The position numbers were made by a program, and so were the translations under genes. A model generated the notes under the pieces. That model was not told where the DNA came from. It saw only the letters and a program-made list of their open reading frames with translations, and searched no databases. A stretch of 18,567 nt of DNA from an uncultured Deinococcales bacterium (GTDB lineage: Bacteria; Deinococcota; Deinococci; Deinococcales; JAAFIG01). Shown piece after piece: positions 2 through 18,566 of the stretch (the stretch's first letter is position 1; every line of letters starts with the position of its first letter). Location of the stretch: assembly GCA_964247135.1 (NCBI GenBank), contig CAXTTL010000080.1, positions 1-18,567 of the forward strand, read 5' to 3'.

Positions 2-253
2 ATTGCCCGTTCGCTCGGTGTGGCGGTAGCCTTCTTGATCTCGAGTGGTGATTTTGACGTGCCCAAAACCTGGCTCACTCGGGTTTTGGTAGCGCTGATC
101 GGTTTGGCGCTGGTGTTTGGCGTCTATTTCGCTTCGGGTTTAATTCCTGAATCGGTGCGTCATTTGGCTTGGGTTTCGTACTTGCGGTATTTGATTGTGG
201 CGTTGTTCGCCGTCGAGGGATTCCCAAGATTGACCTCTCGATTTGTGCTTTAA
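2..253 (+). CDS. 3' end of an integral membrane protein, possibly the C-terminal TM region of a PAP2-family phosphatase; truncated by the window edge
   Basis: Frame is open from base 2 (IARSLGVAVAF...) to TAA at 251-253 and encodes hydrophobic helices. The product guess rests only on recalled similarity of the LRY..VAL..VEG.P tail. Confidence 0.6.
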   Translation: MARSLGVAVAFLISSGDFDVPKTWLTRVLVALIGLALVFGVYFASGLIPESVRHLAWVSYLRYLIVALFAVEGFPRLTSRFVL

Positions 254-293
254 AGACGTTCTCGAGCAGGTTTTTAAATCCCGAAAGAATTGA

Positions 294-331
294 CTTGACG
301 AATTCCGACTGAATCAGTAGGATTAGTCAAG
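294..331 (+). promoter_or_regulatory. Sigma70-type promoter overlapped by an imperfect palindromic operator (Rrf2/IscR-like)
   Basis: TTGACG (295-300), 17-bp spacer, TAGGAT (318-323). The palindrome CTTGAC-GAATTCCGACTGA-A-TCAGTAGGATTA-GTCAAG spans 294-331. Confidence 0.65.
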
Positions 332-370
332 TTTCTCGGGTCAAACTCGAGCATCATCCTTGGAGGAATC

Positions 371-1438
371 ATGCACAAAACCATCATTCTTGCGCTCAGC
401 TCGAGCGTCATTGCCCTCTCGGCGCTCGTTGCCACCTCGAGCCGAGCCGCCACCCAAAGCCTGACCGTGTACTCGGGGCGATCATCGGGACTGGTTGACC
501 CGATTGTTCAACAGTTCAAAAAAGACACTGGCATCGACGTCAAAATTCGTTACGCCACCGACGCCGCACTGTTCGCCACGCTCGAGGAGGAGGGCGCACG
601 CAGCCCTGCCGACGTGTATTGGGTGAACACGGCGGGAACGCTGGTCAATGCCGCCAAAAAGGGTTTGTTCGCCAAACTCCCAGCCAGTATTTTAAAACGC
701 CCAGCCGAGTTTGTCCCCAAAAGCGGACTCTGGACGCCGCTCTCGGCACGTTTTCGCGTGGTCGCCTTCAACCCAAAAACTGTCAAAGATTCCGAACTGC
801 CACAAACCGCGCTCGAGATGCCCAAGCTGACAAAATTTAAGGGGCGCATCGGTTGGACGCCCGTCTACTCGAGCTTCCAAGATTTTATCACCGCCATGCG
901 CAGCGTCGCCGGTGAAGGCAAAACCAAAACCTGGCTGAATGACATGAAAAAACTCGAACCCAAAGCCTACCCGAACAACACCGCCATGCTCGAGGCGATG
1001 CAGGCTGGCGAAATTGATGTGGCGCTGACCAACCATTACTACATCCAAAAAATCATTGCTGGCGTGCGCGAGGGCGAATTTGAAGGGAAAGTCGAGGAGA
1101 AAGAAAAGCCAACGACGCCCAAGCCAGACGTGATCGGCACGCATTACTTCAAGGCGGGCGATGTTGGCAACCTCGAGTTGGTGACGGGGGCGGGTATTCT
1201 CAAAACCAGCAAGAACGCTGCCGTTGCCGCAAAATTCCTCGAGTATTTGCTCAGCACCAAAACCCAGCAACTCACGACCAAAACGATTCTCGAGTATCCG
1301 GTGGTGAACGGTTTCGCGCTGCCAAAGACCTTGCTGCCATTGTCTGAGGCGATCAAACGCAGTCCAAAGATCGATTTTGAAAAATTGGTTGACATTGACA
1401 ACACCCTAAAACTCCTGCGAAACGTGGGTTTGCTGTAA
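371..1438 (+). CDS. Fe(III) ABC transporter substrate-binding protein (FbpA/FutA/AfuA family)
   Basis: Signal peptide; motifs LTVYSGR, EEGARSPADVY, NHYY (tyrosine iron ligands) and EYP; SD GGAGG at 362-366. Confidence 0.9.
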   Translation: MHKTIILALSSSVIALSALVATSSRAATQSLTVYSGRSSGLVDPIVQQFKKDTGIDVKIRYATDAALFATLEEEGARSPADVYWVNTAGTLVNAAKKGLFAKLPASILKRPAEFVPKSGLWTPLSARFRVVAFNPKTVKDSELPQTALEMPKLTKFKGRIGWTPVYSSFQDFITAMRSVAGEGKTKTWLNDMKKLEPKAYPNNTAMLEAMQAGEIDVALTNHYYIQKIIAGVREGEFEGKVEEKEKPTTPKPDVIGTHYFKAGDVGNLELVTGAGILKTSKNAAVAAKFLEYLLSTKTQQLTTKTILEYPVVNGFALPKTLLPLSEAIKRSPKIDFEKLVDIDNTLKLLRNVGLL

Positions 1439-1458
1439 CACTCGAGTTTCCAACTCAC

Positions 1459-1489
1459 AAAATCCTCCAAGTCAAACTGGGGGATTTTT
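1459..1489 (+). terminator. Intrinsic terminator after the iron-binding protein gene
   Basis: Stem AAAATCCTCCA / TGGGGGATTTT with an 8-nt loop, ending in a T run. Confidence 0.6.
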
Positions 1490-1531
1490 CTGATTGTGGC
1501 TCGAGCGGGAACGTTTCTGCCGTTTCTCTCG

Positions 1532-1546
1532 TAGAATAAGCCTATG
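1532..1546 (+). promoter_or_regulatory. -10 box for leaderless transcription of nfeD
   Basis: TAGAAT (1532-1537), 6 nt, then ATG at 1544; no SD sequence. Confidence 0.6.
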
Positions 1547-2857
1547 AAACCCAAACCGATTTTTCTGCTGATCTTGACCGTGCTGGGTCTGTTTGGCTTT
1601 GCCAGAAGTGCGCCCAACACCATTCCTGGCGTCATCATCAAAATTGAGGGCGAGATTGACCCCAACCTGGCAGGCTTCCTCGAGCGTCAACTTGAAGATG
1701 CCGCCAAACAAAACCGTCCACTCGTGGTGCTCGACATTGACACGCCAGGAGGTCGGGTGGACAGCGCCATCAAAATGTCGGACGACATCATCAACTCGAG
1801 TGTGCCGACCATTGCGGTCGTCACAAACGCTTTCAGCGCCGGCGCACTGATTGCCATGAGCGCCGAACAGGTGGTGATGCTACCAGGTTCAGAAATTGGC
1901 GCGGCACTGCCGATCTCGAGCGACGGCACGGCGATTCCTGGGGCGGTTGGCGAGAAAATAAACAGCGCCTTCCGCACCAAATTTCGCAGCGTCGCCACGA
2001 CGCGGGGACGCAACCCAGACGCCGCCGAGGGCATGGTCAACCCCAACAAGGTGATTCCTGGGTTAAAAGACAAAGGCGAGATTTTGACGCTCACCTCGAG
2101 CGACGCGGTGAAAAACAAGATCGCCAACTTTGAAGCCCGGAACATCACAGAGGCGGTGCAAGTCGCGGGATTCTCGAACATCAAACTCGAGACAGTGCTG
2201 CTCTCCCCCGCCGAACAGGTCGGCGCATTTTTATCGCAACCAATTGTGGCGGGCATTTTGCTGGCAATCGGCGTGATCGGTATTTTGATCGAACTGCTGC
2301 ATCCTGGCGTGGCGCTGCCTGGCATTGTCGGCGGCATCAGCTTGCTGGCGTATTTTGCCGGATCGTGCTTAAGCGGCAACGGCTCGAGCGTGGCGTTGTT
2401 GCTGCTGCTGGCAGGTTTGGGCTTGATTGTTGCCGAAATTTTGTTCGTGCCTGGTTCAACTGTCGTCGGGCTGCTCGGCGTCGCCAGCATTCTGGGCAGT
2501 GTGTATTTGCAGTACGGTGACAAATTCTGGCAGGTTGCCAGCGTCGGTTCGATCATTGGCGGGTTGGGATTGGCTTTAATCATTTGGTTTTTACCAAAAT
2601 CTTCGTTTGCCAGACGTTTGTCCCTGCAAACCACCCTCACCGAGGGCAGCGCCAACTGGAACGCCAACGACGCCCCTAAACTCGAGGGACGGTTTGGGAT
2701 TGCCCTCTCGGATTTGCGTCCGAGCGGTGTGGCAGACATTGAAGGCGAACGCGTTGACGTGGTTTCAAACGGCGAATTTATCACGCTGGGCACGAAACTC
2801 GAGGTTGTTAAAGTTGAAGGCAGACGCGTGCTGGTCAAAGCTTTGAAGACTACATGA
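1544..2857 (+). CDS. nfeD: NfeD-family membrane-bound serine protease (long form, YqeZ-like)
   Basis: Signal peptide; ClpP-like domain (IDTPGGRVD, AFSAGALIA, EIGAALP, EKINS); multi-TM region; C-terminal OB-like domain (SDLRPSG...RVDVVSNGEFI...VVKVEGRRVLV); adjacent to floA. Confidence 0.9.
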   Translation: MKPKPIFLLILTVLGLFGFARSAPNTIPGVIIKIEGEIDPNLAGFLERQLEDAAKQNRPLVVLDIDTPGGRVDSAIKMSDDIINSSVPTIAVVTNAFSAGALIAMSAEQVVMLPGSEIGAALPISSDGTAIPGAVGEKINSAFRTKFRSVATTRGRNPDAAEGMVNPNKVIPGLKDKGEILTLTSSDAVKNKIANFEARNITEAVQVAGFSNIKLETVLLSPAEQVGAFLSQPIVAGILLAIGVIGILIELLHPGVALPGIVGGISLLAYFAGSCLSGNGSSVALLLLLAGLGLIVAEILFVPGSTVVGLLGVASILGSVYLQYGDKFWQVASVGSIIGGLGLALIIWFLPKSSFARRLSLQTTLTEGSANWNANDAPKLEGRFGIALSDLRPSGVADIEGERVDVVSNGEFITLGTKLEVVKVEGRRVLVKALKTT

Positions 2858-2911
2858 TCGAAATGGCTCGAGAACGCGTAAACTGAAAGCGATTTTCAAG
2901 GAGGCTCTATT

Positions 2912-3886
2912 GTGGAAGCATTAATCGTACCGGCTGTAATCATCATCGTTTTATTTATCTTTTTTTTCCAAATTATTCCAACCGGTTTGTGGATTCAAGC
3001 GCTGACCTCAGATGTGCCTGTTAACCCTTTGTCACTGATCGGAATGCGCCTTCGTCGCATCCCACCAAACCGAATTATTCAACCGCTGATCGCGGCACGA
3101 AAAGCAGGTTTGTCGGATTTAACCCAAAATCAACTCGAGGCGCACCTGATGGCTCGAGGTGACGTGGACAAGGTGGTCAGCGCCCTGATTGAGGCGAAAA
3201 AAGCCAACATTCCACTCAATTTTGATCAAGCCAGCGGCATCGATCTGGCTGGTCGTGACGTGCTCGAGGGTGTGCGGGCGTTCGTCAAGCCCAAAGTGAT
3301 TCAAACGCCAATGGTGCAGGGCGTGGCGCAGGACGGCATTCAACTTCTGGCGACCGCCAGGATTACGGTCCGCGTCAAGATTGATCGTCTGGTCGGCGGT
3401 GCCGGCGAGGAAACCATCATTGCCCGCGTCGGTGAAGGCATCGTCTCGAGCATCGGTAGCGCCTTAACCCACAACGAGGTGCTCGAGTACCCCGATAAAA
3501 TCTCCAAGACCGTGCTGGCAAAAGGGCTTGATGCGGGTACGGCGTTCGAGATTCTTTCGATTGATATTTCCGAGGTCGATGTCGGTAAGAACATCGGCGC
3601 CCAGTTGCGCACCGATCAAGCCGAAGCCGACAAGCGCATCGCCCAAGCCAAAGCCGAGGAACGCCGCGCGATGGCGGTGGCGCTCGAGCAAGAAAACGTG
3701 GCTCGGGTGCAGGAAATGCGCTCCAAAGTGGTCGAAGCCGAGGCGCAAGTGCCGCTTGCGCTGGCGGAGGCATTCAAGAACGGCAAGCTTGGCGTGATGG
3801 ATTATTACAACATGCAAAACCTGCAAGCCGACACGGGAATGCGCGGCGCGATTTCAGAAAGTGCCAAACGAGACTCGAGCAAGTAA
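2912..3886 (+). CDS. floA: Flotillin-like protein FloA (YqfA family)
   Basis: Motifs [56 protein letters not shown] and [19 protein letters not shown] start with SD AAGGAGG at 2898-2904. Confidence 0.95.
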
Positions 3887-3887
3887 C

Positions 3888-4154
3888 ATGAGATACATCT
3901 TTGCCACCGTACTTGGAATTCTTGACGTTCTGATTCAAGGTCCGCTCGATGCCGTGTTTGGATTTTTCGGCTGGGGTCCGAGCCTCAGCCGAAACGTGAT
4001 CGAAGACATCGCGCAAGATCGCCAAGACGCCAATTGGAGACGCGAATTTCTGGCGCAAAAGCAACTCGAGAAAAACAATCGCAATCCTTTTCTCAATCAA
4101 CACAACACCAAAGCCATGATGTGGGGACGCTCGAGTGTCAAAAAGAAGCAATGA
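3888..4154 (+). CDS. Small hypothetical protein (88 aa) with a hydrophobic N-terminus
   Basis: ATG lies 1 nt after the floA stop, suggesting translational coupling. The ORF-track start at 3861 lies inside floA. Confidence 0.55.
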   Translation: MRYIFATVLGILDVLIQGPLDAVFGFFGWGPSLSRNVIEDIAQDRQDANWRREFLAQKQLEKNNRNPFLNQHNTKAMMWGRSSVKKKQ

Positions 4155-4277
4155 TTCACCTCTGGATCACTTTTACCCAACTGATACGAGATGCGCCAGG
4201 GGTTGCCTTTGATACTCGGGTTGATGACCCCAAGTTGATTGGGGCGAAACCCTCAAAACCAATGGAGGAAAACATCT

Positions 4278-5069
4278 ATGCCTAGCACCGGAAGTGGAAT
4301 GCTCAGTTTAATTCTGACGTACCTGATTTCGCACCCGCTTGTGTTGATCGCGCTGCTCGGTTTTGTTTACAATTTGTTGCGTCCGAAACCGGTGAAATCA
4401 AATCCTGGACAGCAAAAAGCGGCACAAGAAATGGAATTGCAACGCAAACGCCTTCTCGAGGAACAATCGCGGCAAAGGGCGGCGCTCGATGACACCGAAA
4501 TTTTTAGAAAAACCGCACCAAAGTCTTTGGGCATGAACGACGAAGACCTCGACGATGACGGTTTGTTCACCACGGGAAGACCGGTTGTCGTCAAATCGCA
4601 AACCTCGAGCAGCAACCCAAATCAGCAAATGACGGATTTTCAAGCCGATATTCTGGCGGCGCTCGGCATGAAACCCGACCAGGGCAGCAGCCCGCAAGAC
4701 ACGCTGCGCAAGCAACTGGCGCAAAAAATGGGACGGAATGCCGGTTCAACCCAAACCAGTCAACAACCCATCGTCAAAAAACTGACCGCACAACAACAAA
4801 TTATTGCCGCTCGAGAAGCCGAAAATCCGACCGCGCGGGATTCCAGTGGCACGATCACCTCGAGCCTGAAATCGGAAATGACTTCCAAAAGCACCAACAA
4901 CATTGTGGACTCGAATGCCGCCGTCAGAAACACGAGTATGCAAATGAGTCTGAACCGAACTCCGATTCCAATCAGGTCAAACTCGAGTTCGTTTGGCGGC
5001 ACCAACGACGTGGTGCGCGGCATGATCTGGTCTGAAATTCTTGGCAAACCAAAATCCAGCCGCCGATGA
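4278..5069 (+). CDS. YqfB-like membrane-anchored, largely disordered protein
   Basis: SD GGAGG at 4264-4268; N-terminal TM helix; low-complexity middle; C-terminal GMIWSEILGKPKS motif of the kind seen in floA-associated YqfB-type proteins. Confidence 0.75.
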   Translation: MPSTGSGMLSLILTYLISHPLVLIALLGFVYNLLRPKPVKSNPGQQKAAQEMELQRKRLLEEQSRQRAALDDTEIFRKTAPKSLGMNDEDLDDDGLFTTGRPVVVKSQTSSSNPNQQMTDFQADILAALGMKPDQGSSPQDTLRKQLAQKMGRNAGSTQTSQQPIVKKLTAQQQIIAAREAENPTARDSSGTITSSLKSEMTSKSTNNIVDSNAAVRNTSMQMSLNRTPIPIRSNSSSFGGTNDVVRGMIWSEILGKPKSSRR

Positions 5070-5202
5070 AGACAATGTTTTTGATCAACTTCAATAGCTC
5101 GAGTTGCCTAGACCGAATAAGCCTTAGACCGCTTTCGGTTTTGGGTTTCTCGAGTTAATCTTTAAGGGAACAAAAATTGCTTTTGCGATACGAAAGGACA
5201 CG

Positions 5203-7431
5203 ATCACGTCAACTGCACCCATCACAGCCAGCATCCGCATTCGCAGCAGCGAAGAAGCCATCCAATTGTTCGGTGAGAACGACAAAAACTTAAAACGCCT
5301 GCGCGAAAAGCTTGGGGCAAAAATCATTGCCCGTGGCGACGCGATCAAACTCGAGGGAACGCCAGAAGATATTCGCGTTGCCGAAAGCCTGATTCGAGAT
5401 TTATTGTCCGTGGTGCGCCAAGGCGGCGAATTCAGCCTTGACGAGATCGACCGTGGCGCGGTGATCTCGAGCAACGGTGGCAGCATGTTTGAAGACACGA
5501 ACATGGAAAACAAAGATTTGGAGCTTCCAAAGCGCCTGCGACCAAAAACCAAAGGGCAAAAAGCCTACATTGAAGCGATCAACTCTTCGGATATTACTTT
5601 TGGTATCGGTCCGGCGGGCACGGGCAAATGTGTCTCTGGAGACACGCTGGTTTTAACGCAATGCGGCATTGTCCCAATCTCAAGCCTGGCTCAAGGTGTT
5701 GCATTCGAGGAACAACGCCGCAAACCAACACGGATTTTTGGTTTGGATGGACGCGAATGGGCAACGCATGTCTATAACGGCGGAGTTCAAAAGACAATTC
5801 GTTTACAAACACGACATGGTTTTTCAATTGAAGGAACGGCTGAGCATCCCCTTTTAACCTTGAACAGCAATGGCGAACCCGAATGGATTCGCATGGATCA
5901 AGTCAAGGAAGGCACGGTGCTTGCGTTGACTCGAGATTCAGGATTTTGGGGAGACGAAACTCGAGTTCAGCACGAATACACCCGTTTGGAGAACGACAAG
6001 AGTTCAAAAAACATTGAACTGACCGAAATTGACTCAGAATTTGCTTATTTTATGGGTCTGATCGTTGGCGATGGTTGCACCACCAGACGCGGTTACATTT
6101 TGTTTTCCAGTTACGATGAAGAACTCAGAACAACTTTTAAAACAATAGCGTCTCGATTTGGGCTTCATGTGACCAAACACGGTTCAAGCCTCAGATTAAA
6201 CAGCACGCAACTCTCGAGTTTACTCATGCACCTTGGCATCGGCACAGCCAAAGCACATTTGAAAACCATGCCAGATTGTATCTTACGTGCTCCTCGAGAA
6301 ATCAACATTGCCTTTATTCAAGGTTTGTTTGACACCGATGGTCATGCTTCAAAACGTGATGGCTACCCAAGTCTGTGCAGCAGCAGCCATGAATTGATTC
6401 AAGCGGTTCAAATTGTTTTGTTGAACTTGGGCTTGGTCAGCATGGTGTGGCGCAAAAAAACCACCCATTTGGATACCTACATCCTCGAGTTGCGTGGCTC
6501 GGATGCCAAACGCTTTTACGAAATTGTTGGATTCCGCTTACTGCGCAAGCAAGAGCGTGCTTCACAACTCAAAGCAGTTCAAAATACCAATATTGATGTG
6601 ATCCCAAACCTCGCCTCGAGCATAAACGAAGCGGTCAAAGCCCAGCCGTTGACCCATAACATCCACAAGTGGATTTACGATTACCGAATTGGTCGGCGCA
6701 AGCCAAGTTACCAAAAACTCGAGCAAATCCTTGAGGTCTGTCGTGCTCCAAATCATGCTCGAGAACGGCTCGAGTGGTTGGCTACCCGCCAGTTGCTGTG
6801 GTCTGAGGTCAAAGAAATAAGTTATTCGAGCGCTCAGGTTTACGACTTGACTGTGCCCGGCACTCACAGTTTTACCGCCAACGGATTTGTCAGTCACAAT
6901 TCTTATCTCGCCGTGGCAATGGCGGTGGCGGCATTCAAAGCCAAACGCGTCAAGCGCATTATCCTGACCCGTCCAGCCGTCGAAGCGGGCGAGCGCCTCG
7001 GATTTTTGCCAGGCGATTTGCAAGCCAAAATCGACCCGTACTTGCGTCCACTTTATGACGCACTGTTTGACATGATTGACGCGGAGCGCTTTGAAAGCTA
7101 TCTCTCGAGCGGTGCAATTGAGGTCGCGCCACTCGCGTTCATGAGAGGAAGGACCTTGAATGATGCGTTTATCATCCTCGACGAGGCGCAAAATACCACC
7201 CCAGAGCAAATGAAAATGTTTTTAACCCGCATGGGTTTCTCGAGCAAGGTTGTGGTCACTGGCGATGTCACGCAGGTCGATTTGCCAAAAAGCGTGACCA
7301 GTGGTTTGGAACAAGCCAAACGCTATTTGCAAGGCATTGACGGCATCAATTTCGTGTACTTCACCGAGTCCGATGTCGTGCGTCATCCTTTGGTTGGGCG
7401 CATTATTCACGCTTACGAAGAACATTCTTAA
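5203..7431 (+). CDS. phoH: PhoH-family ATPase precursor containing an intein; start codon uncertain (non-canonical ATC at 5203 proposed, ORF track uses TTG at 5266)
   Basis: N-terminal KH-like region ([12 protein letters not shown]...IIARGD); [16 protein letters not shown] once the intein is removed; [65 protein letters not shown]. Confidence 0.93.
5629..6900 (+). mobile_element. Class 1 intein (424 aa) with a LAGLIDADG homing endonuclease domain
   Basis: Starts [10 protein letters not shown] (Cys1); block [18 protein letters not shown] motifs FMGLIVGDG and [10 protein letters not shown]; block [17 protein letters not shown]; ends VSHN with Ser as the +1 residue. Confidence 0.95.
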
Positions 7432-7450
7432 CATTATTAAACGTTTCATG

Positions 7451-7492
7451 CTCGAGGTTTATCGTGCCAGACGCGATAAACCTCGAGTTTTT
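7451..7492 (+). terminator. Intrinsic terminator after phoH
   Basis: Perfect 14-bp stem CTCGAGGTTTATCG / CGATAAACCTCGAG followed by TTTTT. Confidence 0.75.
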
Positions 7493-7544
7493 GGTTTTCT
7501 TGCGCCTGGCGCGTGACTTTGCGTTGTTTGAGGCTTTCATCGCG

Positions 7545-7550
7545 TATAAT
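7545..7550 (+). promoter_or_regulatory. Candidate -10 box for the 7664 gene
   Basis: Perfect TATAAT about 113 nt upstream of the ATG; no well-spaced -35. Confidence 0.4.
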
Positions 7551-10998: not shown

Positions 10999-11016
10999 GA
11001 TTTTTGAGGCTCGAGG

Positions 11017-12375
11017 TTATGCGGTTTTGGGTGTGATCCACGCTTGAACTGTTTCTCGAGTGTCGGAATACGCATCGAATTTTGCTTCCTCAAGCATCCA
11101 ATCTGGAAGGATTTCGAGATCATGTAAAAGGTTGAGCGCGAATCTGCGACATATCAAACATGGATTTTGTTCATATTCCAAGATCAATGGCTCTAACGCT
11201 TCTGAAATACGGTTTTTTTCGTATACGTCACGAATACAATAGCCAACAGCATGAAGCTGTTCAGAGTCTTTGATTTCCAGTGAGACACGGACTATTTTCT
11301 CCGCATCACCCAGAAGATAATTCTGCTCGAACAATCCAACAGCTTCATAACGCAAATCTTGATCTTCGATCAGTTCCAGAGCCAAAGCACGCACTCGAGA
11401 GTCCTGAAAACGCTGTAAGGCAATAACCGAATGCAAACGAATATCGGGATGTTCATGACGAACCAAAAGCAATAAATGCTTGATACTGAACGGGAATTTT
11501 TGCTTGTAAAACGCATACAAATAACTGCGAATCAATTCAGGGTCGGTTTCTTGAATCAAGTCTCGAGCCGCTTGTTTGATTTGAGTTTTTGTTGCTCGTT
11601 GTGACCAGTAACCAATTCCACCACGATAAGGGTTTCGCCGTTGAACCATGTTTTGGAAAGCTCCGTAGGTTGGAGGTGCTGGCTTTTGCCTTGTTTGAGA
11701 AGCAACTGTCTTCTTGGCAAAGAATTTACTGCGTCTTACAAGAACCCGAACATCTTTGTTCACAGCACTTAATTCCTTAACATATTTTTCGAGGTTTGCT
11801 TCACCAAATTGCTTTCCGAACGAATTTAAATACCAATCATCGAGACGAAATTTACGGCTTCTACTGGCAACTTTTCCGTAATGTTCAAGAACAAAAGTCA
11901 AACCAGTTAAGCCATCAAGTTCAATAATTGCATCGTCATGACCAAAAAATTCGTGGCTGTTCTTCTCGTTCGAGACAAAACTTTCATACAACAAATCTCG
12001 AGCTTTTTGACTGCCACGTTTGGCAAACACAAGCAAAAAATCTGTAAATTGATCCTCGAGATGAAGATCAGGTTTATCAGGCAGGATTATGTGGGGTGTT
12101 GCTGGAAATGTTTCAAGAATCGCGTCTTGGAAAAAATCTTCGTCGTGACACAAGTCAATAGCTTCCATCAAATACGGAACGCGACTGCCTTCACATTGCG
12201 CGTCGTATCGGGTATCTTTTAAACAAGTCTCGAGAACAATTTGCTTATACGGCGTTGGATCATGCTTTTTCAAACACAAAATAGCCCGTCCCAAACCTTG
12301 CTCGAGCGCTCGTCTAAATTCTTCGGGGGTCAGTGGTTCTTTGGCGGCACGGATTTCTGGTCGTGCTTGGGGCAT
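11017..12375 (-). CDS. Hypothetical 452-aa, probably helical-repeat (HEAT-like) protein with a C-terminal CxxC
   Basis: Long ORF, visibly more AT-rich than the housekeeping genes; SD AAAGGAG at 12381-12387; motifs YDAQCEGSR and NPCLICRR. Confidence 0.8.
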   Translation of the reverse strand: MPQARPEIRAAKEPLTPEEFRRALEQGLGRAILCLKKHDPTPYKQIVLETCLKDTRYDAQCEGSRVPYLMEAIDLCHDEDFFQDAILETFPATPHIILPDKPDLHLEDQFTDFLLVFAKRGSQKARDLLYESFVSNEKNSHEFFGHDDAIIELDGLTGLTFVLEHYGKVASRSRKFRLDDWYLNSFGKQFGEANLEKYVKELSAVNKDVRVLVRRSKFFAKKTVASQTRQKPAPPTYGAFQNMVQRRNPYRGGIGYWSQRATKTQIKQAARDLIQETDPELIRSYLYAFYKQKFPFSIKHLLLLVRHEHPDIRLHSVIALQRFQDSRVRALALELIEDQDLRYEAVGLFEQNYLLGDAEKIVRVSLEIKDSEQLHAVGYCIRDVYEKNRISEALEPLILEYEQNPCLICRRFALNLLHDLEILPDWMLEEAKFDAYSDTRETVQAWITPKTA

Positions 12376-12497
12376 TGGTGCTCCTTTGTTGTAAGGGCGA
12401 AATGTTGAAAACCAATGCAGTCAGGTAAATCATAGAACCACCTCCAAGCTCGAGTTTAACGTCTTGGGCTTACAAACGCATACGCACTTTGGCAGAT

Positions 12498-13364
12498 TCA
12501 AAAAAAGATTGAAGGATGTTTTCCCTGCAACACGGCTCTGGCTCGAGCTTCACGGCGCACTTGCAAGACCACCACGGTTAACCCGCACAGCAGCACGAAC
12601 CACAAGAATAATTTTGGAACACCCAACACCAAACACAACCCAAGCACCGCCAATTGGGTGCTCAACTCGAGGTTCGCCAGCACTAGCAAGCTGTCGGCTT
12701 CATGATATTCAATTCTGGCGATGGAGCGAAGGTCAGTTCTGGGATATTGACGGTATACGGCTTCAAAACGGCTTTCCGAAAAACTTCTGATCGCCAAATC
12801 TTGCGGTTTGAAAAATCCTGCGTACACACGCTCGAGAAACTTTAAAATGCTTTGGTTTTCTTGGCTGGTGTCTGGACTGGCTCGAAATGGTTCGTTGCGC
12901 TCGAGACGGTAGAGGTATTCCCAGTTGAAATCAAAACTGAGCAGCAGTGTGAAGGTGAAAAACGCCAGAATTGCCATAAGCCAGGCACCAGTAATTGCGC
13001 CCAGACCTGCGAACAAGGCGGCATTCACCACCGTATCGCCTTCGGTATCTAAATAACGTCCAATCTCTGAAATCATGCCGGAGGCTCGAGCGAGTTGACC
13101 GTCGGCGTTATCGAGAACGGTTTTGATCTGAATCAGGATGGCAGGCAGCAGCAATTCACCTCGAGCAATCAAAAAGCCACAAAACACGCCCAAGCAAGTG
13201 TGAAACACCACCAACCAAGTGGGCTGAACTTTTAACGGCAGCAACAACTGCACCACCAAATGCGCGATGGGACGAAAAAAATACTCGCTCGAGAATTCGA
13301 TTCTGGGGCGTGGTTTGAGCGAACGTTGATACACGCTTTTGGAATCGTTGGCGGGTTGGTTCAT
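12498..13364 (-). CDS. CDP-alcohol phosphatidyltransferase family protein
   Basis: Signature DNADGQLAR-x7-GRYLDTEGD and TM helices. Start taken at ATG 13364, 9 nt after a TACAAT -10-like box (13374-13379). Confidence 0.88.
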   Translation of the reverse strand: MNQPANDSKSVYQRSLKPRPRIEFSSEYFFRPIAHLVVQLLLPLKVQPTWLVVFHTCLGVFCGFLIARGELLLPAILIQIKTVLDNADGQLARASGMISEIGRYLDTEGDTVVNAALFAGLGAITGAWLMAILAFFTFTLLLSFDFNWEYLYRLERNEPFRASPDTSQENQSILKFLERVYAGFFKPQDLAIRSFSESRFEAVYRQYPRTDLRSIARIEYHEADSLLVLANLELSTQLAVLGLCLVLGVPKLFLWFVLLCGLTVVVLQVRREARARAVLQGKHPSIFF

Positions 13365-13399
13365 GGGTATGAGATTGTACTGCATCAAGCTTATGGGAA

Positions 13400-13432
13400 G
13401 TGAGATGCAAACTGCAACTTGGGTCGCTCGAG
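13400..13432. repeat. 33-bp direct repeat, copy 1
   Basis: GTGAGATGCAAACTGCAACTTGGGTCGCTCGAG; 30/33 identical to 14061-14093. Confidence 0.85.
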
Positions 13433-13434
13433 GT

Positions 13435-13782
13435 TTACAAACCTTGAATCAACCGAAGTCCATCTTCAACGCGCCGCAACATTTCTGCTGGCAAGACACC
13501 AATGCGAGACTCGAGAAAATCCCGATCTATCGTCACCACCTGCGTCACATTCACCACACTGTCCTGCTCGAGTCCAGCACTAAAAGCTGGAATCAGTACA
13601 TTACCTGGCAGGTCTGCAAGTACCAGATTGGTTGTGATTGAAACGGCAAGCACAGTTGCCAATCTCGAGCGGTTAAATCGGTTGATCTGAATTATCAATA
13701 CTGGACGGTGAAACCCTGGTTCGCTACCGACAGATTCGCGCAGATTAGCCCACCAGATTTCACCACGAGAGATTTCATTCAT
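13435..13782 (-). CDS. mazF: PemK/MazF-family type II toxin (endoribonuclease)
   Basis: RGEIWWANL..VGSEPGFHRPVLIIQ...ITTNL...GLEQDSVVNVTQVVTIDR; 8-bp overlap with the antitoxin stop. Confidence 0.93.
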   Translation of the reverse strand: MNEISRGEIWWANLRESVGSEPGFHRPVLIIQINRFNRSRLATVLAVSITTNLVLADLPGNVLIPAFSAGLEQDSVVNVTQVVTIDRDFLESRIGVLPAEMLRRVEDGLRLIQGL

Positions 13783-14008
13783 GACGCTCGAGGGTCGCAC
13801 GTTGCAATCGTTTCAAACCTGATTCGAGGCGTGTATCCACCCGATCAGCAACACGGTTTATGGCTTCGGTCAGTGGGTCAATCTGGTTTGCCTCGAGAAA
13901 CACTTCGAGCGCTTGGGCATAAACTGCACTTCGGGTCAGACCGCGTTCTTTTGCAAAGCGTTCGGCGGCTTCAAAGACTTCGTTGGGCAGTGAAATGGCG
14001 GTTTTCAT
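13775..14008 (-). CDS. Ribbon-helix-helix antitoxin (ChpI/CopG-like), cognate to the MazF toxin
   Basis: MKTAISLPNEVFEAAERFAKERGLTRSAVYAQALEVFL; lies directly upstream of and overlaps the toxin gene. Confidence 0.9.
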   Translation of the reverse strand: MKTAISLPNEVFEAAERFAKERGLTRSAVYAQALEVFLEANQIDPLTEAINRVADRVDTRLESGLKRLQRATLERHE

Positions 14009-14052
14009 AGCTTGAGTATACCAGGCGTTATACCCGATTTCAACGGTATACT
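14006..14052 (-). promoter_or_regulatory. Leaderless promoter of the TA operon with candidate autorepression boxes
   Basis: TTGAAA (14038-14043), 17-bp spacer, TATACT (14015-14020, preceded by TGG), 6 nt, then ATG. GTATACC / GTTATACC / GGTATAC boxes at 14016, 14027 and 14045. Confidence 0.75.
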
Positions 14053-14060
14053 CGAGTGGG

Positions 14061-14093
14061 GTGAGATGCAAACTGCATCTTGGGTTGATCGAG
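14061..14093. repeat. 33-bp direct repeat, copy 2, with internal palindrome AGATGCA-AAC-TGCATCT
   Basis: GTGAGATGCAAACTGCATCTTGGGTTGATCGAG; 30/33 identical to 13400-13432. Confidence 0.85.
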
Positions 14094-14139
14094 ATTCAAA
14101 TGAAGAGTACTCAATCTCGACTAAATTCATTTAGAAATC

Positions 14140-14709
14140 TTAAGTATGGAATTCGTTCACAGGGATAAACTGACACCCCGTTATTCCAGAAGTCTCGAGG
14201 CTAGATTTCAGAGATTGATGGATTAACACAAAGCAATTAAATTCTGCTATTCGCAGTAAGGGTCGTTGCATATCCATAATCTCTTGTTTTAGTTCTAATT
14301 TTTTAATTTCTGTAATGAACTCAGCATCTTCTGTATCAAAAACAAGTTCTGAACTTTTAAGGTCAATTGATTCATGTTTTTCGAGCAGATGAAATGCCAA
14401 GTAATTTAAATCCAGTTGGACTCTGGACTTGAGATCAAACACGTCTGATGGAATAATTTCAGAATTTACTCCGTGCTGCTCGAGAATATCAAGCATTCGT
14501 TGCGAATACATATCGATACCACTTCCGCAATTGTAATTGTCAAATTTTGGTCCTGAACCATCGATCAAAAATTTGAATCTTTGCGGCTTTTTGGTTAAAG
14601 GCTCTGCCAGCCACCAATGAGGCTCACAGTCACGTAATAATGGTTCTGATCTTGCGAGAAGGGTCTTGTTGCGCCAGCTTCTTAATTCTGCTCGAAATAC
14701 AAAGTACAT
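14140..14709 (-). CDS. Imm11/DUF1629-like immunity-type protein (orphan)
   Basis: Pattern YSQRMLDILE..EIIP...NYLAFHLLEKHESIDLKSS...IKKLEL...PLLRI...VLIHQSLKSSLETSGITGCQFIPV resembles the Imm11 family; AT-rich; SD GAGG before ATG 14709. Confidence 0.65.
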   Translation of the reverse strand: MYFVFRAELRSWRNKTLLARSEPLLRDCEPHWWLAEPLTKKPQRFKFLIDGSGPKFDNYNCGSGIDMYSQRMLDILEQHGVNSEIIPSDVFDLKSRVQLDLNYLAFHLLEKHESIDLKSSELVFDTEDAEFITEIKKLELKQEIMDMQRPLLRIAEFNCFVLIHQSLKSSLETSGITGCQFIPVNEFHT

Positions 14710-14790
14710 ACTAACCTCGTGAAAAAAGTATACGTTTAAAGTCATTTGTTTGAAGCAAGCGAGATACGGAAATTACCTTCATCTCGAGCC

Positions 14791-14821
14791 AAAAAAAGCG
14801 TGAAGGGTTTCCCCTTCACGC
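14791..14821 (-). terminator. Intrinsic terminator of groESL
   Basis: 10-bp stem GCGTGAAGGG / CCCTTCACGC with a GAAA loop and a U7 tail on the - strand. Confidence 0.9.
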
Positions 14822-14844
14822 CGTACCCCGAAGTTTTTCGAGGT

Positions 14845-16542
<1,698 letters not shown>

Positions 16543-16573
16543 TTAAATTCTAAGCTGCGAAGCTCGAGAAGGT

Positions 16574-16873
16574 TTAACCGATGACTGCGAGGATGTCACG
16601 TTCGGAAAGAATGGTGTAATCCACGCCTTCGACGTTGACTTCGGTGCCACCGTATTTGGCAAAGTACACCACGTCGCCAACTTTGACTTCGACAGCAACT
16701 TTGCTGCCACTGTCCAAAGTACGTCCTGATCCAACAGCCACAACTTTGCCGCGTTGGCTTTTTTCTTTGGCGGTGTCGGGAATGAACAACCCGCCTTTGG
16801 TCTTCTGTTCAGTTTCTTCGACGACTTCGATCACGATGCGATCACCAAGGGGCTTTAATGCGTGCTTCGCCAT
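16574..16873 (-). CDS. groS: Co-chaperonin GroES
   Basis: [41 protein letters not shown] at 16878-16883. Confidence 0.99.
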
Positions 16874-16904
16874 AATTCCTCCTAAAAGAATATTGGTATT
16901 GGTT

Positions 16905-16931
16905 TTGGCAGTCTCGAGTCTCGAGTGCCAA
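16905..16931 (-). promoter_or_regulatory. CIRCE element (HrcA operator)
   Basis: TTGGCACTC-N9-GACTGCCAA on the - strand versus consensus TTAGCACTC-N9-GAGTGCTAA; lies between the promoter and groES. Confidence 0.88.
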
Positions 16932-16941
16932 TTCGCTTCAG

Positions 16942-16971
16942 AGTATACGTTGCTTGTCAGCTTTGAGTCAA
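16942..16971 (-). promoter_or_regulatory. Sigma70-type groESL promoter
   Basis: TTGACT (16966-16971), 18-bp spacer, TATACT (16942-16947). Confidence 0.8.
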
Positions 16972-16987
16972 GCTGATGCGCAGCAGA

Positions 16988-17008
16988 TATGAGTGTAATG
17001 TGCTCAAG
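16988..17008. promoter_or_regulatory. HAIR-like element (HspR operator)
   Basis: TATGAGT-N7-GCTCAAG versus consensus CTTGAGT-N7-ACTCAAG (11/14 match), just upstream of the -35. Confidence 0.6.
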
Positions 17009-17102
17009 TTGACGGCTCGAGCGACAAACTAAACTCGGAGGGCAGCGGTTATGAAAAAACCACTCTCTAGGCTTCTCGAGTCTCAGGTTAATTCCCTAAA
17101 AA

Positions 17103-18566
17103 CTATTCCCAAGCAGGGTTGAGTCTCCCCTTTTCATCCCTCGAGTACGGCGTCCACGCCAACGCGAAGAGTTGCAAACTGACATCGGTGGCTTTGGGCT
17201 TCACCGAAATTTGCTCGAGTTGTTCATTCGCATCCACGCCGTTTACCGCGTCAAGTTCGGCTTGCAATTGGGCTTGAAGCTCATTCAATTGCGCTTGCAC
17301 CGCCTCAACGGTATCGGCGGCTCGAGAGACATCCTGCCCCTCACGGTAAGCTTTGCCTGCGGTTTTCATTGCGCCAGCCGCTTTGGAAACCACATTGGTT
17401 TTGCGCCCGCCACCCAGCAACGCGCCCAAAATGCCCATGCCGACATTGACCACCGTCTCGAGTTGTGCCTGTTTGGCTTGCGCCGCTTGCACATCTTGCG
17501 CAGCTTGGGCTTTGCGCAGTCGTTCCTCGAGCATGTTCAATTTGTTCTGATAATTGCCTTTGATCTCTTCGGCTTGAGAGTCACGCAATTCTCGAGCCAC
17601 GGTTTGAAGCCGAATGCGGAAATCCTGTTCGGTTTCATCAGGATTCGAGAACACCTCGAGTTTGCTCGAGTAGTGCAGCGTTAACGCCTGATTGCCTTGC
17701 AGCCATTTGCCAAAGTCTTTGCTCCACTTGTCAAAGTTTTTCACGTTGCCCGCCGAGCTTGGCGCGTCGGCAAAATCGGCACCATCGACGGGATCGGTCA
17801 GCAAGGAATTGACATCAATCTCGAGGTGCGTGGCTTCATCCCAGGTGACAGGAACGGGATTGTCGGTGATTTCAGCAAGGAGTTGAATGGTTTTGTTCGT
17901 GTCGATTTTGTACTTTGTGCTGGCGTAACGCACGTCTGCCGCACCGAGCGCCATCGGGTAGTAAATCACGCCCGATTCGGCACTGGCTGGAATGAAAAAT
18001 TGTTTGACTTGCGGTGGCAAAACAGGGCGGCTCGAGGTGGCGGGTTTGACGGTGGGTGATGTTAAAACCGTAGGGGCGCTGCTTGCTGCGCCCTCCGCTG
18101 CATTCGATTTCTTTTCTGCCATCAAGGTTTTGATCTGATCGTTGGTGACAGGACCCGCCAGATACGACATCGTCCAACGGGTTTGAAAGGTAATCGGACC
18201 CGATTCGTGAACGTTGTGCATCAAAAACACGCGCTTCCCGAGGCTCGAGAGGGTGCGGTTCAAATCCCCACTCGCGCCAGAACCTTGCAATGCCTCGAGC
18301 ACACGGGCTTTGTCGTTGTCGGTTTGAAGCCTGCCGACAAACCATGTGCCAGCATTCGAGAGTCCTTTGTAATCCAGATCGACTGGATTTTGGGTGCTCA
18401 AAACCAGCCCAAGTCCGAAAGCTCGAGCTTGCTTTAAAAGCGTCAGCATTGGGGTTTTGCTGGGCGGGTTGCCGTTCGGTGGGAAGAATCCGAAGATTTC
18501 GTCCATGTATAGCACAGCGCGGAGGCTCGAGGTTCCTGGTTGCGAACGCATCCAGCCGAGCATCTG
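17103..18566 (-). CDS. C-terminal part of a HerA/DUF87-like P-loop ATPase with a coiled-coil tail; 5' end lies outside the window
   Basis: Walker B LYMDE and KQARAFGLGLVLSTQNPVDLDYK (HerA/FtsK-type arginine finger and sensor region); frame is open to the window edge. Confidence 0.8.
   Translation of the reverse strand, partial: QMLGWMRSQPGTSSLRAVLYMDEIFGFFPPNGNPPSKTPMLTLLKQARAFGLGLVLSTQNPVDLDYKGLSNAGTWFVGRLQTDNDKARVLEALQGSGASGDLNRTLSSLGKRVFLMHNVHESGPITFQTRWTMSYLAGPVTNDQIKTLMAEKKSNAAEGAASSAPTVLTSPTVKPATSSRPVLPPQVKQFFIPASAESGVIYYPMALGAADVRYASTKYKIDTNKTIQLLAEITDNPVPVTWDEATHLEIDVNSLLTDPVDGADFADAPSSAGNVKNFDKWSKDFGKWLQGNQALTLHYSSKLEVFSNPDETEQDFRIRLQTVARELRDSQAEEIKGNYQNKLNMLEERLRKAQAAQDVQAAQAKQAQLETVVNVGMGILGALLGGGRKTNVVSKAAGAMKTAGKAYREGQDVSRAADTVEAVQAQLNELQAQLQAELDAVNGVDANEQLEQISVKPKATDVSLQLFALAWTPYSRDEKGRLNPAWE

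Follow-up and report, generated by a model that had tools for sequence, protein, structure and literature searches.

The hexamer CTCGAG belongs, with near certainty, to the HIP class of highly iterated palindromes in the genome of an uncultured Deinococcales bacterium and in the family to which it belongs. In the window, i.e., the whole stretch of 18,567 nt analysed here, it occurs 134 times (7.2 per kb), the outermost copies lying at 40-45 and 18526-18531, compared to an average of 3.86 and at most 13 copies in 200 dinucleotide-preserving shuffles. The hand count of about 134 given in the initial annotation was accurate, and the effect exceeds what was described there. The source genome (386 contigs, averaging 13 kb) contains 33,925 copies in 5.09 Mb, that is, 6.7 per kb (6,663 per Mb) or about one site per 150 bp overall, amounting to 4% of the bases. 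The whole-genome enrichment is 24.7-fold over the zero-order composition and 58-60-fold over a masked Markov background, and the count is 27 times the mean of the 18 one-letter neighbours. The excess thus surpasses the minimum of about 15-fold expected of a HIP and, as is also expected, no other hexamer of the genome is as common as CTCGAG. Every contig longer than 5 kb (297 out of 297) carries the motif, at 2.6-10.5 sites per kb (median 6.8), its observed-to-expected ratio (O/E) is 21-28 in all well-populated local GC classes, and only two out of 1,476 windows of 3 kb hold three copies or fewer, the few stretches free of it being mostly low-GC islands. In the literature, we found no prior description of CTCGAG hyper-abundance in Deinococcota. 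Representative sites of the window are collected in Table 1; the in-frame sites of its GroEL gene alternate between CTCGAG, CTCGAA and TTGGAA from genus to genus in a codon alignment of 17 genomes. GroEL also confirms the affiliation with Deinococcota that the initial annotation had supposed.

Table 1. CTCGAG sites and site-bearing features of the 18,567-nt window
Feature	Position	Strand	Basis
Dispersed bare hexamer CTCGAG, n=134	40..18531		Count versus shuffles; genome-wide flank analysis
PhoH-like ATPase gene split by a LAGLIDADG intein, 13 CTCGAG	5266..7431	+	Pfam PhoH, LAGLIDADG_3, Intein_splicing
DNA outside listed ORFs, 4 CTCGAG (13427, 13510, 13567, 13664)	13389..13774		Site count
GroEL gene, 9 CTCGAG, all Leu-Glu codon pairs	14845..16500	-	Pfam Cpn60_TCP1; site count
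DNA outside listed ORFs, 4 CTCGAG (16913, 16920, 17016, 17075; the first two 7 bp apart)	16877..17102		Site count
486-aa ORF, 14 CTCGAG (9.6 per kb), the window's richest gene by site number	17103..18563	-	ORF list, site count; Pfam search without match

Could such an abundance be a by-product of codon, dipeptide or tetranucleotide usage, or an artefact of the contig or its assembly? The probability of this is negligible. Certainly, 44% of the copies in the window are in-frame Leu-Glu pairs, and high-GC relatives reach an enrichment index of 3-5, probably via their choice of Leu and Glu codons alone. Nevertheless, as the initial annotation had stated, the motif is read in all three frames and is common between genes: within the ORFs of the window, frames 0, 1 and 2 contain 59, 21 and 27 copies, and 27 more lie outside the listed ORFs, where the density is 10.2 per kb, compared to 6.7 per kb inside. 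Genome-wide, the three frames hold 15,348, 3,343 and 5,633 copies versus 2,669, 203 and 492 in 10 synonymous shuffles, so that an excess of 5.8-, 16- and 11-fold outlives the shuffling of synonymous codons in each frame and Leu-Glu codon-pair bias is, as had been argued, insufficient to explain it. The motif is densest in intergenic DNA, with 9.66 copies per kb in 1,422 short gaps versus 6.63 per kb in coding DNA, and codon usage does not account for its dispersion through both, as is characteristic of a HIP. Furthermore, Glu-Leu, composed of the same amino acids, has an O/E of 1.00, the reversed word GAGCTC occurs 0 times in the source genome, and the excess persists after controlling for the tetramer TCGA, which outside the motif is found 20,685 times against 19,779 expected (O/E 1.05). 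Nor is the enrichment limited to one contig, an outcome that the initial annotation had regarded as fatal to its proposal, since the 297 contigs mentioned above and 19 out of 19 independent assemblies of the family are enriched. The shuffles, the intergenic density, the TCGA count and the 19 assemblies together refute an origin in codon usage, TCGA frequency or artefact. Indeed, it is the hyper-abundance of CTCGAG, which encodes 78% of the Leu-Glu pairs of the genome, that has made Leu-Glu the most over-represented dipeptide (O/E 2.35), and its presence in all frames comes at the expense of protein sequence, offering a case of a DNA motif that reshapes protein composition.

Genome-wide, the bases flanking CTCGAG continue the palindrome no more often than chance predicts; the repeated unit is therefore the bare hexamer and not part of a longer repeat. 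One-mismatch forms had been described as frequent too, which holds only in part: they reach up to 3.2 times the masked-background expectation (0.7-3.2, versus the 58-60 of CTCGAG), but the motif itself outnumbers them 15- to 25-fold. In the window, TTCGAG is found 17 times, CTCGAA seven, CTCGAT six and ATCGAG three. Among the one-letter deviants, the genomic O/E runs from 1.4 to 2.0 for the first position, from 0.8 to 3.2 for the second and from 1.3 to 2.1 for the third.

The motif is conserved as DNA, even though its individual positions are not permanent. Over 221 kb aligned at 85% identity, a genome of the same genus keeps 70-82% of the CTCGAG sites versus 43-46% of all hexamers, and in strict intergenic gaps 39 out of 48 sites are kept, compared to 46%. 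Synonymous third positions are conserved at 93.0, 91.6, 94.3 and 88.6% inside the motif versus 64.6, 67.7, 70.7 and 58.4% outside, i.e., they evolve 3.6-5.1 times more slowly than the same codon positions elsewhere. This is the conservation beyond background, both within and between ORFs, that characterizes HIPs (Xu et al. 2018), and with it, the initial description of CTCGAG as HIP1-like (dispersed, in all frames, intergenic, independent of codon usage and hyperconserved between species) is borne out. Within the genus, 323 and 230 sites are unshared, and between genera only 51 out of 189 (27% of those of the source genome) are shared by position; the density stays constant while single positions turn over, and a motif common to the genera of a family combined with site turnover is what is expected of uptake sequences. 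Neighbouring copies repel each other, the pair correlation g(d) being 0.35 at 6-18 bp and reaching 1 near 70 bp (an exclusion of about 60 bp), and no periodicity appears in the spacing up to 1.5 kb, the range covered on contigs with a mean length of 13 kb. The scaled strength S is 2.2-3.0 by loss rates and 2.7-3.3 by the equilibrium ratio, two estimates that agree. From this, we infer a weak, position-independent, cell-wide directional pressure for the whole duplex hexamer, with S of about 2-3 per site, which would act as selection or as biased conversion; conservation together with turnover is compatible with both organism-level selection and biased conversion.

One candidate for the source of this pressure is chromosome organisation, with CTCGAG providing the binding sites of an abundant nucleoid-structuring protein and its density being selected accordingly, although we deem it quite improbable. 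A six-base site would be unusually small for an architectural protein, no periodicity appears up to 1.5 kb, and a role specific to the chromosome does not predict the equal density found in spacer-sampled DNA (see below). On the other hand, the exclusion under about 60 bp might reflect the footprint of a bound protein, and conservation at the DNA level in and between genes is the signature that led Xu et al. 2018 (PMC5861425) to infer selection on HIP1, for which they propose a nucleoid-structuring function.

The hyper-abundance is ancestral to the family of the source genome (f1), since all 19 of its genomes, from five genera, contain 4.3-6.8 copies per kb, these genomes being metagenome bins that are 57-94% complete. 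Across the families of the order, the enrichment index is 15-27 in f1, 5-12 in f2, 6.5-9.4 in part of f5, 3-5 in f4 and 0.2 in f3, and one family of the order strongly avoids the site, with a density of just 0.013-0.3 per kb. This gradient from extreme through intermediate enrichment to avoidance provides a natural comparative series to find the genes responsible, and the genera with intermediate enrichment possibly offer culturable organisms for experiments. GAGCTC is also scarce beyond the source genome (25 or fewer copies in 16 of the 19 f1 genomes), but a SacI-like restriction-modification (R-M) pair was found in only seven of the 19, and a scarcity reaching beyond the carriers of that pair fits a gene pool shared across the family.

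The CRISPR spacers suggest that the motif extends to mobile DNA. The 112 unique spacers from nine genomes contain 28 copies of CTCGAG where 0.9 were expected, which yields an index of 28 versus 27 in the host, so the targeted DNA shares the motif. Only three of the 112 spacers match the assembly of the source genome and one matches a housekeeping gene; moreover, the spacer pool mirrors the GGCC avoidance of each spacer's own host, and part of the spacers may derive not from viruses but from the accessory DNA of relatives.

What would exert a cell-wide pressure for an exact duplex hexamer? Such a pressure implies a protein that reads CTCGAG, and the reading that we prefer, with a probability of about 40%, is that the motif is a tag of kin DNA, read during DNA uptake, recombination or repair. 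A putative protein would recognise CTCGAG on DNA entering the cell or under repair, and the motif, as an "own-kind" tag, would raise the odds that this DNA is taken up, recombined or spared; tagged DNA being favoured, CTCGAG would spread by molecular drive. An origin of this kind would be akin to that of uptake sequences, or to the current proposal for HIP1, and unlike the creation of sites by a conserved methyltransferase with short-patch repair; out of the two options raised initially, a DNA-binding, uptake or recombination function is the better bet. That the density of the motif serves as a methylation-independent label, whose reader is an uptake receptor, a recombination factor or a Chi-like palindromic nuclease switch, is a more tentative proposal; here, molecular drive would have carried the motif through the chromosomes and mobile elements of the family, with the proteome rewritten in its wake. 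Our analysis identified no candidate for the protein that reads CTCGAG. The uptake channel ComEC is present in 18 of the 19 f1 genomes, but since 10 of 14 control genomes have a match as well, its presence says little. Counting against an uptake tag, a 6-mer discriminates poorly and, to our knowledge, DNA uptake in Thermus and Deinococcus shows no preference for particular sequences.

A protective self-label would explain the spacers in a different manner. A nuclease or defence system, Chi-like but independent of orientation, would spare CTCGAG-dense DNA and degrade motif-poor DNA, and because of this both chromosomes and successful mobile elements would need the motif. The host-like density of the spacer pool, the fact that so few spacers match the chromosome assembly, a pressure that is position-independent and saturates at short range, and the rarity of motif-free stretches, mostly low-GC islands, all point in that direction. 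However, no candidate gene was found, the spacers may stem from accessory DNA of relatives instead of elements under this selection, and atypical, motif-poor contigs may have been dropped when the metagenome bin was made. We know of no self-label system of this type, and hold it to be unlikely.

Methylation followed by repair is a somewhat stronger competitor of the kin tag, yet still a doubtful one. In it, a methyltransferase for CTCGAG or TCGA, as suggested by the initial annotation, would mark the sites, and methyl-dependent mismatch or short-patch repair would convert near-sites and protect the existing ones. Six-base palindromes are classic targets of R-M-type proteins, the f1 family is rich in R-M systems, and a cell-wide repair bias would imprint mobile DNA too, as the spacers suggest. 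Each cyanobacterial HIP genome has a matching methyltransferase in the account of PMC4390886, and methylated CTCGAG has been detected in genomes from a hot-spring metagenome (10.64898/2026.06.24.734251), although the passages on it state no link to Deinococcota. Against it, no support was found for the proposed co-occurrence with a specific methyltransferase or Vsr-like gene. In five genomes from four of the five f1 genera, no methyltransferase orthologue common to the genera was found in PF01555, PF00145, PF02086, PF07669 or PF02384: one (the closed genome G011) lacks a PF01555 enzyme and another (G008) a C5 enzyme, the PF07669 and PF02384 matches are divergent type I, type IIG or MmeI-like enzymes, and the two D12-class enzymes are both patchy mobile cassettes. 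The sole orphan methyltransferase of the source genome has clear orthologues in only three of 18 relatives, and none in G011. Vsr was found in none of the 19 f1 genomes, and DUF559 Vsr-like proteins, present in 15 of the 19, are unspecific, as 23 of 36 genomes of the site-avoiding family have them as well. Furthermore, the deamination products CTTGAG and TTCGAG are not depleted (O/E 1.4-2.0), and the unshared sites show no m5C-type hotspot, as their transitions fall about equally on each position of the half-site (89, 88 and 71). All 18 neighbours are at least 15 times rarer than CTCGAG, a uniform rarity that a repair bias at one position is unable to produce; the deviants lack an outer-position bias, and TCGA alone is not enriched. 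Distinct, non-orthologous CTCGAG methyltransferases may nonetheless act in each genome, a comparison of orthologues being no measure of specificity.

Should the own-kind label prove true, it would extend such systems beyond cyanobacteria for the first time, and would do so with no methyltransferase dedicated to it. On the practical side, f1 genomes will give abnormal results in XhoI and TaqI digests, in k-mer binning and with codon-pair models. CTCGAG is also identical to the target of XhoI-type R-M systems. Restricted sites are expected to be avoided in the host genome, and in one family of the order this one is; in f1, by contrast, it is about 25-fold enriched rather than under-represented, and the XhoI-family nuclease PF04555 was found in 0 of the 19 f1 genomes, with a model that was equally silent in all 14 control genomes. 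The uptake sequences of Neisseria (DUS) and Pasteurellaceae (USS) are family-wide, occur in all frames, constrain proteins, are fairly evenly spaced and are subject to weak drive and turnover, and their uptake bias has been demonstrated experimentally. CTCGAG resembles them in being family-wide, in all frames, constraining for proteins, fairly evenly spaced and turned over by position under a probable weak drive, but they are non-palindromic, 9-12 bp long and found about once per kb, while CTCGAG is palindromic, has only 6 bp and recurs 6.7 times per kb.

HIP1 has defied explanation for three decades, nearly all work on it being confined to cyanobacteria. Like CTCGAG, HIP1 (GCGATCGC) is a short GC-rich palindrome dispersed within and between genes, 15-300-fold over-represented according to PMC5861425, PMC4390886 and PMC6604393 (CTCGAG, about 25-60-fold); for both, codon usage is insufficient, conservation between species exceeds the background, and an occurrence inside a CRISPR repeat is found. 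They differ in length (8 versus 6 bp), in phylum, in the matching methyltransferase of HIP1 carriers, of which no shared counterpart was found among CTCGAG carriers, and in the deviants, biased to the outermost positions for HIPs (Elhai 2015, PMC4390886) but not for CTCGAG. HIP1 is also described as periodic at 10-90 kb (Xu et al. 2018, PMC5861425) and as raising transformation in a methylation-dependent way, with a proposed role as uptake signal (PMC13756078; 10.1101/2024.09.10.611283). A further likeness is GGCGCC in Calothrix PCC 7103, another bare palindromic hexamer, which far exceeds every other 6-mer in over-representation, in an organism that, as here, often avoids other palindromes (Elhai 2015, PMC4390886). 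As far as that source describes it, GGCGCC is in marked excess only in Calothrix (PCC 7103, plus 19 kb of strain D253), where it has candidate GrCGyC methyltransferases, whereas CTCGAG is fixed throughout its family (19 of 19 genomes, five genera), with weaker forms across the order. With 6,663 sites per Mb, its density exceeds that of the cyanobacterial HIPs (about 500-2,500 per Mb; PMC4390886) three- to thirteenfold, and it provides an independent, contrasting second system in which to ask what makes HIP-class motifs.

CTCGAG occurs exactly 134 times in the window, for which the initial annotation had given about 134 copies, whereas 200 dinucleotide-preserving shuffles averaged 3.86 and never gave more than 13. 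The enrichment is not limited to this contig. The host assembly, G000 (5,091,702 bases, 386 contigs, 52.7% GC, the window being contig C80), holds 33,925 copies, that is, 6.66 per kb or 4.0% of all bases, and all 297 contigs above 5 kb carry the motif, at 2.6-10.5 sites per kb (median 6.8). It ranks first among hexamers, the next-ranked words all overlap it, and on both strands it is counted 67,850 times, whereas the top-ranking word unrelated to it reaches 11,958. The excess is 24.7-fold over base composition and 58-60-fold over first- and second-order Markov expectation with a motif-masked background; relative to local composition it is flat, at 21-28-fold over the well-populated GC classes, and 2 of 1,476 3-kb windows have three sites or fewer.

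What, then, is the repeated unit? The flanks are nearly information-free (G at -1 and C at +1, just 39%) and the extension of the palindrome past the hexamer is at chance level in coding and non-coding DNA alike, so the unit is the bare hexamer, and a longer repeat or the apex of a hairpin or terminator is excluded. The same applies to an enrichment driven by TCGA, since outside CTCGAG this tetramer is found 20,685 times for 19,779 expected. The 18 one-letter variants reach 0.7-3.2 times expectation and are at least 15 times rarer than CTCGAG; among them the transition neighbours (CCCGAG/CTCGGG, TTCGAG/CTCGAA and CTTGAG/CTCAAG) rank first, as would be expected if so large a pool of motifs gave rise to mutational satellites. 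The CTCGAG count divided by the mean of these 18 neighbours provides a composition-free index, which is 27 in G000 (33,925/1,245).

The initial annotation had also held that the motif is read in all three frames and is common between genes, beyond what Leu-Glu codon-pair bias alone can give, and this is borne out: the window has 59, 21 and 27 sites in the three frames and another 27 outside the listed ORFs. Genome-wide, the 3,434 genes delimited by a purpose-made conservative caller cover 72% of the genome, the non-called DNA retaining some genes, and contain 15,348, 3,343 and 5,633 sites in frames 0, 1 and 2, far above the 2,669, 203 and 492 of ten within-gene synonymous-codon shuffles and the 1,069, 115 and 275 of five codon-order shuffles. 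The 1,422 short intervals (20-300 bp) that separate called genes carry 9.66 sites per kb at 46% GC, vs 6.63 per kb in coding DNA. Both types of shuffle rule out codon or dipeptide usage as the cause, and codon usage or artefact is refuted as an explanation of the motif. The proteins of G000 are themselves reshaped by it: Leu-Glu exceeds expectation more than any other dipeptide (O/E 2.35; Glu-Leu, 1.00), 78% of its 19,588 occurrences in called genes being spelled CTCGAG, and Ser-Ser, the frame-2 reading of the motif, comes next (O/E 1.63).

This raises the question of what is conserved, the DNA or the protein. In an alignment of 221 kb of a genome of the same genus, G005, to G000 (85.1% identity), 1,260 sites are common, 323 are found just in G000 and 230 just in G005. 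Retention of CTCGAG is 82%, 70% and 81% in frames 0, 1 and 2 (46% for other hexamers in each frame), 78.5% vs 43% in non-called DNA, and 39/48 vs 1,852/4,022 in strict intergenic gaps. As the cleanest control, a given synonymous codon position was compared within the motif and elsewhere: the third base is conserved in 93.0% vs 64.6% of cases for CTC, 91.6% vs 67.7% for GAG, 94.3% vs 70.7% for TCG and 88.6% vs 58.4% for CGA. Synonymous divergence is thus 3.6-5.1 times lower inside the motif (4.7-6.5 times after Jukes-Cantor correction), so the constraint acts on DNA, not on protein. The pressure is directional, operates at the DNA level on the whole hexamer and is independent of position. Between genera, in 36.5 kb aligned to the closed genome G011 (72% identity), 51 of 189 G000 sites are common, vs 17.5% of all hexamers, and Leu-Glu positions of GroEL switch among CTCGAG, CTCGAA and TTGGAA; density is therefore held while individual sites turn over. 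Under a simple fixation-bias model, which treats selection and biased conversion alike, the scaled coefficient S comes out at 2.2-3.0 from the slower loss and at ln(15.5 to 27) = 2.7-3.3 from the equilibrium motif:neighbour ratio; both estimates concur in a pressure per site that would be weak, and selection and biased conversion fit the data equally.

The GroEL sequence of G000, about 80% identical to those of Deinococcus, Meiothermus and Calidithermus (the closest matches, at 95-100%, being metagenome proteins), places the organism in Deinococcota. An order-wide comparison of 151 genomes uses rounded genome sizes for the relatives and, given their non-independence, is descriptive. In the host's own family, f1, all 19 genomes from five genera have 4.3-6.8 CTCGAG per kb; these are metagenome bins, 57-94% complete and one of them closed (G011), and binning may drop atypical DNA. 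Densities in the other families are 0.29-2.6 per kb in f2 (37 genomes), 0.7-2.9 in f4 (23), 0.63-3.4 in f5 (36) and 0.013-0.3 in f3 (36), a family that by size and GC is putatively Deinococcus-like and that strongly avoids the site (37-1,193 copies per genome). The index, computed for relatives on samples of 20-350 kb, is 24 in G005 and 15.5 in G011 (60% GC) within f1; 12.3 at only 47% GC in one f2 genome (G126) and 4.7-5.9 in three other f2 lineages; 6.5-9.4 in the f5 genera g13, g22 and g24; 3.3-5.2 in f4; and 0.2 in an f3 genome (G020). Leu-Glu over-representation tracks this order (2.1-2.4 in f1, 1.2-1.6 elsewhere, 0.97 in f3). From these gradients, the trait is extreme and fixed in f1, weaker in several lineages outside it and reversed in f3, and the pressure is older than the five genera of f1. 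The avoidance in f3, the opposite of what is seen in f1, suggests that a CTCGAG-specific restriction circulates there.

Is the pressure confined to the chromosome? G000 has a CRISPR array (see table) whose 37-nt repeat itself contains CTCGAG, and related arrays are present in 12 other genomes of the family; in the part of PMC6604393 available, HIP1, the highly iterated palindrome of cyanobacteria, lies inside the Synechocystis CRISPR1 repeat, which is echoed here. A set of 112 unique spacers, each with a full repeat on either side and drawn from nine genomes and all five genera, contains 28 CTCGAG in 3,336 positions (8.4 per kb, index 28), where 0.9 would be expected by composition (Poisson P about 8e-32) and 22 at host density, and their offsets are spread along the spacer length. 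Matches of at least 24 nt in the G000 assembly exist for 3 of the 112, one strong and two marginal. The strong one (35 of 37 nt, 100% identity) lies outside any prophage, with housekeeping genes around it, and its spacer is either self-targeting or taken from a relative's chromosome. These few chromosomal matches indicate that most of the captured DNA does not stem from the core chromosome of close relatives, although in CTCGAG content it resembles the host; the pressure reaches mobile DNA. This speaks for a cell-wide process, or for an advantage to whatever DNA resides in these cells, rather than for a function limited to the chromosome. As for the targets, the spacers had no match in phage or plasmid records, four spacer stretches had no exact match in viral contigs nor two in metagenome contigs, and the PF03354 terminase was found in none of the 19 genomes of the family; among the matches listed, the densest viral contigs with three close CTCGAG have 58-70% GC, unlike f1. 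The GGCC content could not separate the spacer pool from host DNA, since the pool reflects the GGCC pattern of the respective hosts: avoidance of GGCC is confined to genus g1, and wherever a spacer contains GGCC its host is not an avoider.

Features of the host genome G000 referred to in the text, with coordinates where available
Contig	Position	Strand	Feature
C80 (window)	40-45		First CTCGAG
C80 (window)	18526-18531		Last CTCGAG
C80 (window)	5266-7431	+	PhoH-like ATPase gene split by an intein that carries a LAGLIDADG homing-endonuclease domain
C221	7026-8137		CRISPR array
C9	start of contig		CRISPR array, listed jointly with C221
C221	7702-7736		Spacer with the strong self-match
C25	927-961		Its match, inside an AhpC/TSA-family (peroxiredoxin-family) gene
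C14	~35,000-38,000		NgoPII-like R-M pair; G005 (C6) has a Dam-class methyltransferase in its place, next to orthologous flanking genes
C13	4758-14536		CTCGAG-free stretch
C70	14168-16418		CTCGAG-free stretch
C20	7986-9673		CTCGAG-free stretch
C36			Orphan N6/N4 methyltransferase (PF01555), nuclease neighbour absent
			Dam-class methyltransferase adjoining a SacI-like nuclease
			Two C5 methyltransferases, one adjoining an NgoPII-like and one an Eco29kI-like nuclease
			N6/N4 methyltransferases adjoining NotI-like and MvaI/BcnI-like nucleases
			Two MmeI-like enzymes and a type I subunit

The assembly of G000, 84% complete, encodes the methyltransferases and R-M pairs of the table. Several palindromes are avoided to an extreme degree: the 5.09 Mb contain 0 GAGCTC, 1 GGGCCC, 3 CGGCCG, 4 AGGCCT, 5 CGTACG, 7 GGATCC, 11 CCGCGG, 0 GCGGCCGC and 380 GGCC, CCSGG has an O/E of 0.07, and the window lacks GAGCTC, GGCC, CCGCGG, CGGCCG, GGGCCC and GGATCC altogether. 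Five avoided sites match R-M pairs of G000 (SacI-like, NgoPII-like, Eco29kI-like, NotI-like and BcnI-like), the palindromes concerned being GAGCTC, GGCC, CCGCGG, CGGCCG and CCSGG. The NgoPII-like position on C14 looks like a variable defence-island site.

The initial annotation had proposed, as one option, a methyltransferase for CTCGAG or TCGA plus biased repair as the cause, and for this part the analysis found no support. The METHYLTRANSFERASE and repair hypothesis, in which a methylation-coupled drive makes or keeps CTCGAG, is unlikely: the rarity of all 18 neighbours could not arise from a repair bias acting on a single cytosine, there is no depletion of deamination products, and the sites that G000 and G005 do not share differ mainly by transitions, spread about evenly over the half-site (89, 88 and 71 at its three positions), with no methyl-cytosine hotspot among them. 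Furthermore, the candidate methyltransferases are patchy or divergent across the family and Vsr is found in 0 of its 19 genomes, although non-orthologous enzymes could have the same specificity. The orphan PF01555 enzyme, with clear orthologues in 3 of 18 relatives and none found in G011, is too patchy to be the family-wide factor. A search of five genomes from four of the five genera returned no PF01555 enzyme in G011 and no C5 enzyme in G008; the PF07669/PF02384 proteins are either long and type IIG-like or type I subunits, with 25-32% mutual identity (68% for one pair), the matches of about 500 aa being rejected as divergent type I subunits. The SacI-linked Dam-class (D12) enzyme is not a hidden CTCGAG system either: it is patchy (7 of 19 genomes), and its presence, at 71-72% identity, in three f3 genomes with GAGCTC counts among the lowest of that family fits a GAGCTC specificity and horizontal mobility. 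A second D12 enzyme, missing from the G000 assembly and found in three genomes with differing surroundings, was set aside as a mobile cassette. Small stand-alone DUF559 proteins, whose fold resembles the Vsr endonuclease, occur in several copies (as many as 11 matches) in 15 of the 19 genomes and rare in f2, f4 and f5; their copy number is no correlate of CTCGAG, since they are also common in the site-avoiding f3 (23 of 36 genomes). The two DUF559-rich families are those with the strongest palindrome biases. In all, the gene inventory leaves the methylation and repair model unsupported. An XhoI-family nuclease, XhoI having CTCGAG as its target, was found in 0 of the 19 genomes with a model that was also silent in 14 of 14 control genomes. 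As a separate rival, it is quite doubtful that CTCGAG is a protective self-label read by a nuclease.

The placement of the sites bears on further possibilities. CTCGAG sites repel one another at short range (pair correlation 0.35 at 6-18 bp, 0.8-0.9 to about 60 bp and 1.0 from about 70 bp), and up to 1.5 kb their spacing in G000 has no periodicity, helical or other; that they are binding sites of a nucleoid protein is very improbable. Pairs exactly 6 bp apart never occur in G000, because such spacing creates GAGCTC; those 8 bp apart are rare (11, vs 87 at 7 bp and 115 at 9 bp), and GAGNNCTC has an O/E of 0.28. There is a spike of sites starting exactly 2 bases past the stop codon (170 near the 3,434 called genes), with 14.5 CTCGAG per kb in the first 20 bp and variable bases between stop and motif. 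Stretches of at least 1.3 kb free of CTCGAG number 32 in G000, mostly at 27-45% GC, and are probably recently acquired islands.

A pressure of this kind, reading the whole hexamer in DNA, older than the family's genera and extending to mobile DNA, points to a predicted protein that would recognise duplex CTCGAG. The reading to which the analysis commits, with a probability of roughly 40%, is that CTCGAG acts as an own-kind tag in DNA uptake, recombination or repair, and that it would spread by molecular drive. This tentative proposal is supported by the persistence of one motif across the whole family despite site turnover, by the saturation at short spacing and by ComEC, kept in 18 of the 19 genomes. 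GAGCTC counts of 25 or fewer in 16 of the 19 genomes, though the SacI-like system is present in just 7, suggest a shared gene pool, which also supports such a tag, as does the recent work that, in the part available (PMC13756078), ties HIP1 to methylation-dependent transformation.

A full-text search, covering main texts outside the subscription journals, turned up neither an over-representation of CTCGAG nor, for Deinococcota, any HIP. The closest known systems, in the available parts of PMC4390886 and PMC5861425, are HIP1 and GGCGCC, the alternate hexamer HIP of Calothrix. Descriptively, CTCGAG is itself a HIP. Nevertheless, it differs from the cyanobacterial HIPs in phylum and length, in the absence of a bias to outer positions among its one-letter deviants, in being fixed in a whole family, in that no common methyltransferase was found there, and in its density, 6,663 per Mb compared with about 500-2,500 for HIPs (PMC4390886, as far as available).
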